Positions 2,745-9,850 of a stretch of DNA of 10,229 nt are shown here, piece by piece. Made by a program: the position numbers and the translations under genes. Each line of letters starts with the position of its first letter. Position 1 is the first letter of the stretch. The notes below the pieces were generated by a model. That model was not told the DNA's origin. It worked only from the letters and a program-made list of their open reading frames with translations, and did not search any database. Source of the DNA: a virus (Duplodnaviria; Heunggongvirae; Uroviricota; Caudoviricetes); the IMG/VR virus record IMGVR_UViG_2541047831_000006; one strand, given 5' to 3'.

Positions 2745-3892
<1,148 letters not shown>

Positions 3893-3964: not shown

Positions 3965-4451
3965 AAAGTAATTCTGATAGAGCTGATGTATCATCATGAA
4001 CACCATCACCAATAGCCCCCCAACCTCTTACATCATAACTGTCTCTCCATCTTGCTATCTGAAGTTTTGGGTATTTATTCGCTCCATCTGGGTCTTCTAA
4101 TTGCTGCCGTAGTTGATCAGGATCATACTTCAGCACATTCTGGAAATAGAACTGCTGTACGCCATACGCATCGTACACAGCCATAGAATGGCCTTGCACA
4201 GTTACGAACTTGGCAATCCGTCCGTTATATACAGGGTAACCAGCAGCGTTAATGATGATTGGTTGCGAAACAGGAACGTGAGAGCCGTCTTCGTTCTCTA
4301 CATAAACCTGAATCCGGTTTTCAGGATTTACCGGGTCAGTGTCAATTTTACCGATATAAATTTTGCCATTGGCTACGGCTTTAAAAGAACGCGCCATAGT
4401 GAAGAGTTGCGAAGGCATCGATACAATCACATTGGCTGTAATGTCTGTCAT
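3965..4451 (-). pseudogene. Tailspike 5' portion: P22 gp9-like N-terminal head-binding domain followed by the start of the endosialidase region; reading frame runs into IS911
   Basis: N-terminus [11 protein letters not shown]...[21 protein letters not shown]...[10 protein letters not shown]...[13 protein letters not shown]...NVLKYDPDQ closely resembles the P22 tailspike head-binding domain. It then switches to endosialidase-like sequence ([20 protein letters not shown]) before the IS junction at 3964/3965. Start ATG at 4449..4451 with GGAG about 10 nt upstream. Confidence 0.85.
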
Positions 4452-4551: not shown

Positions 4552-5454
4552 TCAGTAATTATGTACTGAAGGAGGTAATTCTTTATTCTTAAGTCTCATC
4601 CATGCGGAAAGATTCGTTGGTCCGTCTGGCTCATTGATATCAACATCTCGTGTGTGATTGATTAAAACGTCTCTCGCCATATCGATAATACGGGAGAACT
4701 CATAACCGCAGTCATGACATCTGCCGGAATAGTTCGATTGAATTTGTTTTAGCGCCGGATACAGTTCGCGGAATAATGCCTGTGAGCGGTTGGCATAATC
4801 CCATAGCCATACAAGGCTGTTTGCTTCTTTTGCAGAAAGCTCGTTGGTTTTCTTCTCTTGTTTGCCGATGAACTCACCTTCAAGCACTACCCTGTGGATG
4901 TACTCTACTGCTTGTGGTATCTGAGATGCATCAAGCTCTTCAATACTTTCCACATTGAAACGCTGATGAATCATTGCATAAGCTTCTGGGTACATTAGAT
5001 GCTTTTTGCTGACTAGCATATTTACAGCATCACGAAGCGGAGTCCTGTCATCAACAGATGTTTTCTTCCGTGCATTTGCTGCCTCTCCCTTTGTCCAGTA
5101 GTCATGCAGCACAGTAAAGCATTCTTCCTGGTACTGAATCAGTTTATCGCGGATGTCAGCACGAACTTTCTCAGGGTTGATGCTGAACAGCCATCCATTT
5201 AACTTCTTCAAAGGAAGGCAGAGTAGCTTACGAAGCTTACCATCAGCGGCAACCATGTTCATATGAACACAGTTGAATTTGCTAATCTGCTTCATGAGTT
5301 TTGTTTGCTGCGTTGACCAGCTCATTCCGAGGTTTTCAACGATTGGCTTCATCGCAACATATGCAACTCCGGCAGCCATGGCGGTGATAATTTGCTGACC
5401 GTTGAATGGCACGTAAGAGGTGTTCACTGCTTCTAAAATTGCTATACTATTCAT
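4552..5454 (-). CDS. ant: Antirepressor Ant (P22 immI-type), about 300 aa; likely start at internal Met ([12 protein letters not shown]...) rather than the ORF-track start at 5520
   Basis: The ATG at 5452..5454 has GGAGA 8 nt upstream, while the ORF-track ATG at 5520 has no Shine-Dalgarno sequence. Gene order arc-ant-tailspike matches the P22 immI region. Identification as Ant rests on this context and on my recollection of the P22 Ant N-terminus. Confidence 0.7.
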
Positions 5455-5455
5455 G

Positions 5456-5522
5456 TTGGTTTTTCTCCACGGATTTACCGACAACCGAAGCCCTGACTGT
5501 TCCAGCAGTTGGGGCTTCACTG
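5456..5522 (+). ncRNA. Candidate sar-like antisense RNA (about 65-70 nt) complementary to the ant ribosome-binding region
   Basis: Plus-strand extended -10 element TGcTATACT (5441..5448) just inside the ant start. Downstream plus-strand hairpin GAAGCCC (5487..5493) / GGGCTTC (5512..5518) followed by a U-rich tract (TGTTTTGATTTCTTTG). The transcript would cover the ant Shine-Dalgarno (plus-strand TCTCC 5464..5468). Analogous to P22 sar. Confidence 0.3.
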
Positions 5523-5686
5523 TTTTGATTTCTTTGCCGCATCAAGCATCACTTCTGAAAACGTGCGCTTGCCACTGAATACTCTTTCTCTTCTCAATTT
5601 TTCGTTCGTGCCAAATGATTCGCCATGAACAAAATTTGGTCTTAAAATGGTAATCGCAATCTCTTTGACTACTGCATCCAAGCGAA

Positions 5687-5839
5687 TCACACCGTTACCC
5701 CCTCTCTCTTCAGGCTGTCTATCAGGCGCTTGATAACCTCTGAGTTAAACGACCTGCACTCTTCCTTTGCCCTGCTACCGATAGCATCCTTTAACGACTG
5801 CGGCATCCTTACCAAAATCTTACTTATTTCTTTCTCCAT
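5687..5839 (-). CDS. arc: Arc-like ribbon-helix-helix repressor (50 aa from the Met with the strong RBS)
   Basis: MEKEISKILVRMPQSLKDAIGSRAKEECRSFNSEVIKRLIDSLKREG resembles P22 Arc (..MPQFNLRWPREVLDLVRKVAEENGRSVNSEIYQRVMESFKKEG). GGAGG lies 6 nt upstream of the ATG at 5837..5839. The ORF-track start at 5875 lacks an RBS. Confidence 0.75.
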   Translation of the reverse strand: MEKEISKILVRMPQSLKDAIGSRAKEECRSFNSEVIKRLIDSLKREGVTV

Positions 5840-5953
5840 GTTACCCTCCACGCAAACAACTCTTTTCGAATACAAAAGATAGCAAAGTGAGTATATCTAG
5901 TCAAAATTTTTTTGCATACACTTTGCTATCAAATTGAATACCAAAGGTGTTAT
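5840..5953. promoter_or_regulatory. Divergent Pant/Pmnt-like promoter-operator region with a perfect 12-bp inverted repeat pair GATAGCAAAGTG (5878..5889) and CACTTTGCTATC (5919..5930)
   Basis: Minus-strand candidate promoter: -35 TTGACT (plus 5899..5904), 17-bp spacer, -10 TATCTT (plus 5876..5881) reading toward arc. Plus-strand candidate -35 TTGCAT (5913..5918) reading toward mnt. One copy of the 12-mer overlaps each promoter. Confidence 0.5.
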
Positions 5954-6202
5954 ATGGCAAAGGGTGTGTCAATTTCTCCAACTACGGTAAGAATCCCTGA
6001 ATCTTTACGCGAGGCTCTTGCTGTCAGAGCATCAAAAAATGGTCGCTCTGTTAACTCCGAGATCGTCATGATTTTGCAAGCCGCGATTGATGAAGATAGG
6101 TCGCCAAAGTCAGTTGAGTCATTTGCTCAGCAAGAAGCTGATAAATTCAAAGAGGCGCTACTTGAGACGCTAAAGACCATGTATGCTAAGGATGAAAAAT
6201 AA
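5954..6202 (+). CDS. mnt: Mnt-like ribbon-helix-helix repressor (82 aa from MAKG...)
   Basis: VRIPESLREALAVRASKNGRSVNSEIVMILQAAI and C-terminal EALLETLKTMYAK resemble P22 Mnt (FRMPMEVREKLKFRAEANGRSMNSELLQIVQDAL ... TLKDLYKK). Divergent from arc-ant as in P22 immI. RBS AAAGG upstream of the ATG at 5954. Confidence 0.75.
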   Translation: MAKGVSISPTTVRIPESLREALAVRASKNGRSVNSEIVMILQAAIDEDRSPKSVESFAQQEADKFKEALLETLKTMYAKDEK

Positions 6203-6738
6203 TGCTGCACACAATTCATTTCTTATGCCCTGTTAACACTGCCACTGTTGGGCAACTTCAGAACCACTGTCTCACCGCATTATCTCAAGGCGCAACTGAA
6301 TTAAATATCCATATATCAAGTCAGGGAGGGGAAACTGCTGCTGGCTTTACTGCGTATAACTTTCTTAAGTCACTCCCTGTTACCGTTAGAACTCACAACA
6401 TAAGCAATGTTGAATCCATAGCTAATATCGTTTTCCTGGCTGGCTCAGAACGTTTCGCAAACCCATTATCAAGATTCCTGTTACATCCTCTATTATGGTG
6501 CTTTGCCTCCCCAGCCGCCGACCATGCCAGATTGAGAGAGTACGGGAAATGCCTCGATAACGATCTTGATCGCTTCGTTGAGACGTTCAATATCGACATC
6601 GGAACCCATATTAGGTGGGCATCCCTGATAGCAGACTCGACCATTTTGGATGCTAACAAGGCTCTTGAGCATGGCATAATTAATTCCATAAAAACTGCAA
6701 GGCTGGCATCCAATCAGGCAAACTGGTGGGTTGTTTGA
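6202..6738 (+). CDS. ClpP-fold (peptidase S14-like) serine peptidase homolog, 178 aa, translationally coupled to mnt
   Basis: Start ATG overlaps the mnt stop (TAATG). Motifs ISSQGGETAAGF, NVESIANIVFLAGS, RFLLHP and DLDRF align by eye to ClpP INSPGGVITAG, GQAASMGAFLLTAG, RVMIHQP and TERDRF, with candidate Ser-His-Asp triad residues conserved. Lacks the ClpP N-terminal axial segment. Confidence 0.65.
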   Translation: MLHTIHFLCPVNTATVGQLQNHCLTALSQGATELNIHISSQGGETAAGFTAYNFLKSLPVTVRTHNISNVESIANIVFLAGSERFANPLSRFLLHPLLWCFASPAADHARLREYGKCLDNDLDRFVETFNIDIGTHIRWASLIADSTILDANKALEHGIINSIKTARLASNQANWWVV

Positions 6739-6786: not shown

Positions 6787-7236
6787 TTAGTCAAACATAG
6801 TGTTTCTAAAGTCTCTCGCATACCCTGCTAACACTCTCATTCTATTATGATTGTTAGCAGACATGTGAGCTACAGGATGAAAAAGAGCAATCAATGAATA
6901 CCTGTTCTCATCAAAAAGATTTTGTGCATAAACGAGAGCGGTATTGGATGTTTTATGCCACTGCAACTTTTGCGGTGTGCTGATATCTGTGCCATTTTTT
7001 ATTGGCTCAAATTTATTTTCACCAATTGCTAAATGAAGGTGCATAAGGCCTGCATCTTCAATATCAGGAGGTCGATGATAAGAGGTGTCTCTGCCAAAAT
7101 AGCTGGGCAACGTTCCCGTAGACTTGTAGATGATAAAATCATCTACAAGTGTTTGTTTTAAATCAGGAAACTCAACAAAAACCGGGGAGAAAAAATAGTC
7201 AAAACTATCCTGATTATATTCCACGGTTACTTGCAT
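6787..7236 (-). CDS. YafO-family-like toxin homolog (putative ribosome-dependent mRNA interferase), 149 aa; second gene of a two-gene operon
   Basis: By recollection of E. coli YafO: FIIYKSTGTLPSYFGRD vs FISYKRDGVLPDIFGRD; HLHLA vs HIHLA; ALVYAQNLFDE vs HLVYCQGAFDE; SLIALFHP vs LLIAILKP; NHNRMRVLAGYARDFR vs NNQMHKIGKMAEAFRM. GAGG RBS 6 nt upstream overlaps the upstream gene's TGA. Needs a database search to confirm. Confidence 0.5.
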   Translation of the reverse strand: MQVTVEYNQDSFDYFFSPVFVEFPDLKQTLVDDFIIYKSTGTLPSYFGRDTSYHRPPDIEDAGLMHLHLAIGENKFEPIKNGTDISTPQKLQWHKTSNTALVYAQNLFDENRYSLIALFHPVAHMSANNHNRMRVLAGYARDFRNTMFD

Positions 7237-7244
7237 GTTTTACC

Positions 7245-7811
7245 TCAGTGGAAGTTACCAGAGTGAAACACACGAGTCCCGTGCTCAGCAAGCGCACGCA
7301 AACCAGCCATATCTACGGAACTATCAAAAACAACCGGAACACATGAGCGTTGTTTAATAAGACTATTCAGGTTGGTTACGGCAGATCTGGCATCAGCAAC
7401 AACGATATAGATATCTCTTGCGATCTCTTTAAAATCAGCAGAAGCTTCTTTGAATACCGATTTCATTGCCCCTTCAAGTCCTCTCAATTGATGCTCTATC
7501 AATCGAGACTTTTCTGGTTCAATGATAGACAACACATTGTCTACATTCTCATCGGTAGCGTTTGCAAGAACACGATAAGCGTATTTCAGCATTCGAGACA
7601 ATTCTTTAATCGAAGACACCGCCTCATGAAGCTCATCATTAGCCCGTTCACTGCTGAATGAGGATTGATGGTAAGCGTGCTGAACGTTATCAGTAACAAC
7701 CACCTCACAACTGAACGCAGAAGCTTGCTGTAATAGCAAACCTATTGCGACTCCAGCTTTGGCAGCGTTCAAGCTAAACATTTCATCAATCCCATTAGTC
7801 TCATTGCTCAT
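7245..7811 (-). CDS. Hypothetical protein (188 aa from the Met with the AGGAGG RBS), first gene of the operon with the YafO-like gene; candidate antitoxin or sensor partner
   Basis: Strong RBS AAGGAGG 5-6 nt upstream of the ATG at 7809..7811; the ORF-track start at 7841 lacks one. Predicted largely helical; no motif I can assign. Its stop is 8 nt upstream of the YafO-like start. Confidence 0.55.
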   Translation of the reverse strand: MSNETNGIDEMFSLNAAKAGVAIGLLLQQASAFSCEVVVTDNVQHAYHQSSFSSERANDELHEAVSSIKELSRMLKYAYRVLANATDENVDNVLSIIEPEKSRLIEHQLRGLEGAMKSVFKEASADFKEIARDIYIVVADARSAVTNLNSLIKQRSCVPVVFDSSVDMAGLRALAEHGTRVFHSGNFH

Positions 7812-7986
7812 ACAAACCTCCTTCTTATCGGAGATTATCAATAGCTATGCATCCATTGAATACACGCTATGCGCAATAAGTTTACGTCACGTGATATCAT
7901 TATGCAACCACCGTTCTATCACCGACTAACTTTACTCCCACTCCTATACATCATCTGGTATCCTGCGCAAAACTAAGGAGGTTGGT
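7812..7986. promoter_or_regulatory. Divergent intergenic region between the hypothetical/YafO-like operon and the membrane-protein gene; contains overlapping palindromes TCACGTGA (7887..7894) and GATATC (7893..7898)
   Basis: Strong Shine-Dalgarno sequences on both flanks imply promoters for both divergent transcription units lie here. No confident -10/-35 assignment. Confidence 0.3.

Positions 7987-8702: not shown

Positions 8703-9850
<1,148 letters not shown>

Follow-up and report, generated by a model that had tools for sequence, protein, structure and literature searches.

The immI region of phage P22 is a textbook system for DNA recognition by beta-sheets and for control through overlapping divergent promoters, and to our knowledge it is the only version of immI that has been studied. 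More generally, the beta-sheets of ribbon-helix-helix (RHH) repressors read short repeated boxes, either arranged in arrays (the met-boxes of MetJ, the heptads of omega, the boxes of CopG) or set apart as spaced half-sites (NikR). In P22, Arc represses two divergent, overlapping promoters (PMC2724298). According to the GenBank annotation (X01916 and AF527608), the operator Omnt (AGGTCCACCGTGGACCT) lies over the start of Pant, the operator Oarc (ATAGTAGAGTGCTTCTATCAT) lies between the -10 and the -35 of this promoter, and Pmnt consists of a -35 TTGAGA, 17 nt and a -10 TATCAT. Both operators and both Pmnt hexamers are found on the arc side of the Pant -35 or overlap it.

Villafane et al. (2008; PMC2629481) distinguished ten ant moron types in sixteen genomes, and we found no paper in the searchable literature on the operators of immI types other than that of P22. 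Here, we describe an immI control region with a pair of matching sites. As far as the searchable literature shows, this variant is undescribed; it is a rearrangement of the known P22-type switch rather than a new kind of switch.

An immI module in a CUS-3-like prophage

The window (the whole 10,229-nt stretch of DNA analyzed here) matches a prophage of E. coli ATCC 11775 with 100% identity, and its left part is CUS-3-like. Two divergent RHH genes flank a 114-bp intergenic region. The arc-like gene (5687..5839, minus strand) encodes 50 aa (MEKEISKILVRMPQSL...) and matches the Pfam Arc family (PF03869, E = 5e-12); the mnt-like gene (5954..6202, plus strand) encodes 82 aa (MAKGVSISPTTVRIPESL...), an RHH domain followed by a C-terminal region, and matches the same family (E = 1e-10). 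The top PDB match of the Mnt-like protein is P22 Mnt (1MNT, E = 2e-6, residues 12-73). It shares 35% identity with the Mnt of epsilon34, the P22-type Mnt used in our alignment, and its C-terminal region can be aligned to the P22 Mnt tail, with T72, L73 and Y77 invariant.

On the other side, the antirepressor gene ant (4552..5454, minus strand) matches both P22_AR_N (PF10547, 4e-45) and P22_AR_C (PF10548, 2e-28) and is predicted to be the regulated output of Pant. An antisense sar RNA (5455..5521, plus strand; Rfam RF00262, 83.9 bits against a gathering score of 43) sits opposite the ribosome-binding region of ant, so the module keeps the antisense layer by which P22 controls ant. Since two divergent Arc-family RHH genes occur together with Ant and sar, the module of mnt-like gene, arc-like gene, sar and ant is a P22-type immI, carried by a CUS-3-like E. 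coli prophage. The Pfam and Rfam matches thus bear out the preliminary description of this DNA, made from its letters alone, which had read the region as the immI control region between divergent arc-ant and mnt. The same genes follow one another in the same order in P22 (mnt, divergent arc, sar, ant), and the likeness extends to a strong Pant with its -35 at the same position, a putative RHH operator in the Pant spacer and a similar C-terminal tail of Mnt.

A 57-aa ORF without a Pfam match lies between the arc-like gene and ant (5517-5690, minus strand); P22 has no gene in this slot, and phage vB_EcoP-611R6 has an unrelated 73-aa ORF there (L002 2283-2504). Downstream of the mnt-like gene, the start of a ClpP-like gene (6202..6738, plus strand; PF00574, 2e-11) overlaps the mnt-like stop codon (TAATG). 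This gene is probably co-transcribed with mnt from Pmnt and expressed in the lysogen, and a ClpP-like gene is also found 3' of other mnt-like types (L044, L047). Farther on are a YafO-toxin-like ORF (6787-7236, minus strand; PF13957, 3e-22) and, before it, a 198-aa ORF without a Pfam match (7245-7841, minus strand), which may form a toxin-antitoxin pair inside the ant moron. A hairpin sequence with perfectly matching 13-nt arms and a 3-nt loop (ACTTGTAGATGAT / ATCATCTACAAGT, 7122-7150) lies within the YafO-like ORF.

An inverted repeat around the Pant -35

The arc-mnt intergenic region (5840-5953) contains the 12-mer GATAGCAAAGTG at 5878-5889 (left arm, plus strand) and, 29 nt farther on, its exact reverse complement, read on the plus strand as CACTTTGCTATC, at 5919-5930 (right arm, motif on the minus strand). 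The perfect 12-bp pair was thus described correctly at the outset. By eye, the repeat stops at 12 bp, with no extension on either side. We shuffled the intergenic region 20,000 times with dinucleotide composition preserved, and a perfect inverted repeat of at least 12 nt appeared in 0.1% of the shuffles. The 10-kb window has one other perfect inverted repeat of at least 12 nt with a loop of at most 60 nt, the hairpin at 7122-7150, and no further exact copy of the 12-mer was found elsewhere in the window. Near-copies of the arm with two mismatches occur as GATAGCAACATG twice (3273-3284, plus strand; 9311-9322, minus strand) and as GATAGCAAGATG once (4048-4059, minus strand). Five arm matches with up to two mismatches were observed in the window against 1.1 expected; the near-copies may be located in repeated insertion-sequence DNA.

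The two arms lie on either side of the -35 of a strong promoter. The Pant -35, TTGACT (5899..5904, minus strand), stands where the Pant -35 of P22 is annotated and is separated by a 17-nt spacer from an extended -10, TG-c-TATCTT (5876..5883, minus strand), with an inferred start near 5869; a simple position weight matrix (PWM) scan scored this promoter at 14.1 bits. Within the left arm fall four bases of the -10 hexamer (5881-5876), namely its upstream ones, the TG of the extended -10 and the proximal spacer, in agreement with the earlier placement of this arm over the -10 of the arc-ant promoter. The right arm begins about 14-15 bp past the Pant -35, across an A/T tract. The A4T7 tract (5903..5913) is kept in types A-E of the relatives defined below and partly in types F, H and I. 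It forms an A-tract at about -38 to -44 on the Pant strand, which by general E. coli promoter rules suggests a proximal UP element, and a mirror-image Pmnt would have its -35 in this tract.

Conservation of the two sites

We searched for relatives with the DNA, the Mnt-like protein and the Arc-like protein and obtained about 120 loci in 14 sequence types, grouped as types A (the window and the Serratia version) to J; a scan of genome contigs added one locus, from Serratia. The loci were anchored on the Pant -35 alone, and window position 5899 was taken as index 0. The distance of the right site (O_R) from the -35 was preset by the regular expression used in one comparison and left free in a separate anchored comparison, and the position of the left site (O_L) was never constrained. 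The immI variant of the window is matched in 631 of 5,426 complete E. coli genomes, including O157:H7, and over at least 80% of the query in 416.

Among 37 close relatives on distinct contigs, the arms match at 12/12 positions in 8 loci and at 11/12 in 29. Arm position 5 varies between G and T, in either arm, and GTG of the left arm has become GCG in two loci. With an exact match in 8 of 37, the 12/12 repeat is a minority haplotype: its perfection is incidental, and it is the sites themselves that are conserved.

Across the wider set, the Mnt-like proteins fall to 52% identity with that of the window, and flanks and proteins together diverge to 52-65%. Pant is nevertheless found at the same place in all types, with 10-14 bits in 13 of 14 and 7.5 in the type E representative (-35 TCGACT). 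At -16..-10, most types have a CA(C/A)-N-GTG box, with degenerate versions in I and J, and an ACAC-T-GTG or ATAT-T-GTG box occupies +19..+26 in all 14. The box centers are 36 bp apart throughout, and both sites are kept in the Serratia version despite its diverged flanks. Because their positions are conserved across 14 diverged sequence types, we regard the two sites as functional elements. The comparison across relatives that the preliminary description had proposed as a check therefore came out in two parts: both sites keep their position in the 14 types, whereas perfection of the repeat is confined to those 8 of the 37 close relatives. The claim of a distinct operator architecture holds on the first of these grounds. 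A chance match, or the functionless relic of a neutral duplication, would fit the minority status of the exact repeat; set against a shuffle frequency of about 0.001 and the persistence of position and core in the 14 diverged types and in Serratia, such an origin is extremely improbable.

In types B and C, three boxes stand on each side in steps of 11-12 bp, at -35/-24/-13 and +23/+34/+45. In the type of the window, the inner pair is well preserved and the outer boxes are degenerate. The three boxes per side and their 11-12 bp spacing in types B and C may be likened to the RHH box arrays. The window type differs from these systems in that only its inner pair is well preserved, and Pfam gave no metal- or ligand-binding domain. 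Two further sequences were considered as a third copy of the arm and rejected, since ATACCAAAGGTG (5938-5949) coincides with the Shine-Dalgarno sequence and GGCAAAGGGTG (5956-5966) with codons 1-4. The former changes to ..GGCATG in Serratia; both are possible degenerate boxes, with a loose match to +45/+46 of types B and C.

Comparison with the P22 operators

P22 has two different operators next to each other, Omnt centered at -38 and Oarc at -20..0, and an empty mnt side. In the window, a single motif recurs at -13 and +23 as mirror images, with a 14-bp A/T block between the Pant -35 and the right site and no operator over the Pant start. Because the same motif stands on each side of the Pant -35, the layout really differs from that of P22, where the annotated Omnt and Oarc are adjacent on the arc side of this hexamer; the earlier claim to this effect is upheld by the annotation. 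The promoters differ as well. The P22 Pmnt fully overlaps Pant, but the homologous hexamers in the window are degraded to TACAAA and TATCTA, and our PWM scan placed no top-scoring plus-strand promoter at the P22 Pmnt position.

The 17-bp Omnt dyad (center -38) is not present at its position in the window, which reads CTCTTTTCGAATAC and is variable in close relatives and absent in Serratia. A CTTTT-N7-AAAAG dyad at the Pant start (5862-5878) was also rejected as an operator, being polymorphic in close relatives and absent in Serratia. By eye, neither the LexA nor the IHF consensus fits the region.

The sites of the window family resemble Omnt in form. Omnt (AGGTCCAC-C-GTGGACCT) is an odd-numbered dyad of 17 bp with a CAC-N-GTG center; relatives include full versions of this center, whereas the 15-17 bp dyads of the window approach it imperfectly, and the P22 Mnt protein is homologous to the Mnt-like protein of the window. 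The differences lie in the outer positions (ATAGCAA or ATATCAC in the window family, AGGTC in Omnt), in the imperfection of the window dyads and in the DNA-facing beta-strand residues, which in our alignment are P/T/R in the Mnt-like protein and H/N/R in P22 Mnt. The DNA-contact roles of these residues are reportedly established by the work of Knight and Sauer. In relatives with the P22 architecture (L185, L186, L188), the Omnt and Oarc analogues vary with the reading heads while the CAC-N-GT core is kept, as in GAACCAC-C-GTGGTTC, CTATCAC-C-GTTATAG, GATAGCAC-C-GTACTAC and ATATTAC-C-GTTCTAC; this operator series is a natural set for working out RHH recognition rules.

Two operators or two half-operators

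Two possible arrangements may explain a mirrored pair of 12-mers. Each arm could belong to a complete operator, or each could be a half-operator that is joined to the other by DNA looping, as the preliminary description had suggested. The left arm comprises the outer half, the center and the inner GTG of O_L (core CAAAGTG, 5883-5889, center 5886), and the right arm comprises the inner CAC, the center and the outer half of O_R (core CACTTTG, 5919-5925, center 5922). O_L can be written as the imperfect dyad GATAGCAA-A-GTGAGTAT (5878..5895), with a strong outer half and an inner half GTGA-n-TAT, and O_R as the imperfect dyad ATACAC-T-TTGCTATC (5916..5930). The dyad of the window is weak because a shift of 1 nt is needed to match the inner halves to the outer ones, and the outer half of its core is CAA, not CAC.

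The cores of the window, CAA-A-GTG and CAC-T-TTG, thus sit within imperfect dyads, and relatives have the full CAC-N-GTG at the same positions. The equivalent of O_L is GTATCAT-C-GTGATAA in type C, which carries a near-perfect or perfect dyad (GTATCATCGTGATAA), and CTACAC-G-GTGTTTAT in type D. The equivalent of O_R is ATACAC-T-GTGATATC in type B and CTACAC-T-GTGTAG in types D and H, a perfect 13-bp palindrome (CTACACTGTGTAG). Since each arm sits in a 15-17 bp imperfect dyad and relatives carry clean dyads, the arms look like parts of two complete, mirror-oriented operators rather than two half-operators.

Under the looping arrangement, each arm would take one RHH dimer, and a single Mnt-like tetramer would hold both 12-mers, bridging them over the A4T7 tract, wrapping or bending the 29-bp spacer with the Pant -35 and the UP-like element, and clamping both Pant and Pmnt silent. 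Such a micro-loop of about 40 bp would be unprecedented for an RHH repressor, and we know of no repressor loop as short as 36-41 bp. Several features are compatible with it: the strongly conserved parts are single asymmetric 12-mers with weak inner halves, the centers of the 12-mers are 41 bp apart (3.9 helical turns, nearly in phase) with the A4T7 tract midway, the spacing is invariant in 14/14 types, and the Mnt-like tetramer probably has two DNA-binding dimers. Yet the core centers are 36 bp, or 3.4 turns, apart and hence out of phase, and the full palindromes carried at each site by relatives need no partner. Moreover, the two dimers of P22 Mnt take adjacent half-sites of a single 17-bp operator (Berggrun and Sauer 2001, as reported in PMC2724298). 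Contact between bound proteins could account for the invariant spacing, but a fixed position of both sites relative to invariant promoter elements would account for it equally well. With dyads at each arm, palindromes in relatives and cores 3.4 turns apart, the suggestion of looped half-operators finds no support, and we consider a bridging tetramer quite improbable.

A structure in the RNA was rejected too: no promoter model puts both arms on one transcript, which disposes of a hairpin or terminator reading, and our scan gave no terminator-like site.

Candidate positions of Pmnt

Pmnt is the less well defined of the two promoters. All plus-strand promoters are weak, the top one scoring about 5 bits in the PWM scan, and we considered four candidates. 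The first, put forward in the preliminary description, is TTGCAT, 16 nt and TTGAAT (5912..5939); its start would fall inside the Shine-Dalgarno sequence, its neighboring register (TTTGCA, 17 nt, TTGAAT) scores 5.0 bits, and its -10 is conserved only within types A and B. The second, found by eye, is TG-c-TATCAA (5924..5932), a mirror image of the Pant extended -10 without the final T. The third has its -10, TATCTA (5894..5899), where the P22 annotation puts the Pmnt -10 (TATCAT), with TACAAA (5871-5876) as the -35 partner. The fourth has a -10 TACACT (5917..5922) in the inner half of O_R; its TAnnnT pattern is invariant in 14/14 types and reads TATATT in types F and G.

The right arm had been placed beside the mnt -35. 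It does abut TTGCAT (5912-5917), but with a plus-strand promoter of about 5 bits and a -10 that is not conserved in relatives, this placement is plausible and unproven. The starts expected from the four candidates fall near 5906, 5929-5931, 5939-5941 or 5946. O_R falls between the -35 and about +25 of each candidate, so that the right arm would lie within or just downstream of the core promoter, in a repressive position, in every case. In type G (L124/L125), index 0..+18 is a palindrome, AGTCAA-CGAATAA-TTGACT, equivalent to a pair of -35 hexamers placed back to back. It is a hint that the Pmnt of this family uses TTGnnT at +13..+18, although no -10 follows at the right distance.

The mirror-image candidate raises another explanation, namely, that the symmetry is a by-product of back-to-back promoters, each arm being an extended -10 (TG-n-TATC..) with no dedicated repressor site. 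The transcribed strand of each arm indeed reads CACTTTGCTATC followed by TT or AA, which gives TG-c-TATCTT for Pant and TG-c-TATCAA for the mirror Pmnt. However, the promoter consensus covers TG-n-TATC only and leaves the conserved CA(C/A)-N-GTG over. The boxes also persist in types D, E, H, I and J, whose outer halves (TAGC or ATGC) do not resemble a -10. Furthermore, two RHH repressors need operators, and the region has no other repeated element. We therefore judge an origin from promoter symmetry very improbable.

Candidate repressors of the two sites

The two operators could be read by the Mnt-like protein, by the Arc-like protein or by both. To evaluate these possibilities, we compared the sites with the reading heads of the two proteins. 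The arm class GATATCA(C/A)-N-GTG is found in types A, B, C, F and G. Within it, the Arc-like heads are of three unrelated kinds, SKILVRMP (A, B), DCIVRMSP (C) and K(L/F)QLRLTE (F, G). In contrast, a single Mnt-like head class runs through all five types, with DNA-facing P, S/T/G and R as aligned to Arc and Mnt. Because the arm class persists with three Arc-like heads and one Mnt-like head class, the Mnt-like protein is the likelier ligand. Two strains also bear on the question: in O157:H7 EDL933 (L005 1540-1650), the arc-like gene is truncated to 36 aa but ant, the mnt-like gene and the two sites are undamaged, which we count in favor of the Mnt-like protein, and in strain RM9872 (L007), the arc-like gene is intact as well, along with mnt-like, ant and both operator sites. 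We predict, with about as much doubt as confidence, that the Mnt-like protein is the main ligand of both arms.

The correlation between heads and sites is qualitative and comprises about ten lineages. Its finer detail is weak, since type G combines an 11/12 arm with a different N-terminus of the Mnt-like protein. The search with the Arc-like protein returned no locus that has the Arc-like head and lacks the Mnt-like family, and the two candidate ligands are consequently not separated in nature among the loci found; the same search brought up the relatives with the P22 architecture.

Alternatively, the Arc-like repressor may use the arms as its operators, either by itself or together with the Mnt-like protein. 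The position of the left arm coincides exactly with that annotated for Oarc, in the spacer of Pant, and the arm agrees at 9/12 positions with the left, -10-proximal half of this 21-bp operator, each half of which takes one Arc dimer. Over -20..0, window and Oarc agree at 14/21 positions, and only 2 of 20,418 window 21-mers score as high. The left arm has TAG at -6..-4 from its center, as do Arc-type half-sites of P22 and L188, and TAG or TAT recurs at this distance in the Arc-type sites of the P22-architecture relatives. Since Pant and Pmnt no longer overlap, a second copy of the site would be needed for Arc to shut Pmnt, and P22 Arc is known to repress both promoters (PMC2724298).

Other features weigh against the Arc-like protein. 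One arm class goes with the three unrelated Arc-like heads named above. The TAGA...TCTA boxes of P22 have become CAAA...TATA in the window, a region that, partly as judged by eye, is asymmetric about the P22 center, and the second half-site expected 11 bp away has no match. O_R repeats the 12-mer only and contains no 21-bp Arc-type site. The head itself is K/L/R, compared with Q/N/R in P22 Arc, and EDL933 retains its sites in spite of the truncated arc-like gene. Taken together, an Arc-like ligand appears unlikely, though plausible.

In types D, E, H, I and J, the Arc-like head is the same as the Mnt-like head and all boxes are of one motif, which we count among the points for the Mnt-like protein. 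Given the shared head, the Arc-like protein of these types probably binds the same boxes, which also speaks for an Arc-like ligand there. The shared heads were seen in five sequence types (L043, L044-L047, L100, L117-L120, L123), for example, MKVRDIAPLGIRLP and MKGARDISPMGIRVP, with one motif in all four boxes of the control region. The pattern suggests that two repressors of different oligomeric state may compete for the same sites.

Assigning both arms to the Mnt-like protein leaves the Arc-like protein of the window without an obvious operator. A weak candidate for it is AGATA-N12-TATCT (5877-5898), which shows one compensatory change in Serratia and is lost in type B.

Proposed regulation

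With the Mnt-like protein as the ligand of both sites, the switch would work as follows; the repeat, its rarity in shuffles, the placement of Pant and the conserved positions of both sites are observations, and we infer ligand, stoichiometry and regulatory outcome. Two dimers would fill each operator, which for the Mnt-like protein would be one tetramer. Made in the lysogen, the protein would fill O_L and block RNA polymerase at the extended -10 and spacer of Pant, and arc-ant would be silent. At a higher concentration, it would also fill O_R, cover the Pmnt core and limit mnt, a form of autoregulation, together with the ClpP-like gene, which would come under O_R control through its probable co-transcription from Pmnt. 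O_R covers about -47 to -61 of Pant, adjoining the UP-like A-tract, and its occupation may lower Pant further.

If the Mnt-like protein does read both sites, mnt is directly autoregulated in this switch and the promoter-competition logic of P22 is lost. The roughly ten variants of head and operator make a ready-made data set for RHH recognition rules, and the arrangement has a bearing on how resident prophages control antirepressors that are able to induce other prophages. Some prophages have two mnt-like genes of different types in tandem (L047 1483-1991; L097 939-1437; L121 944-1443). The second gene of such a pair is without a control region of its own, and these second genes may supply extra repressors that target the immI regions of other phages in trans.
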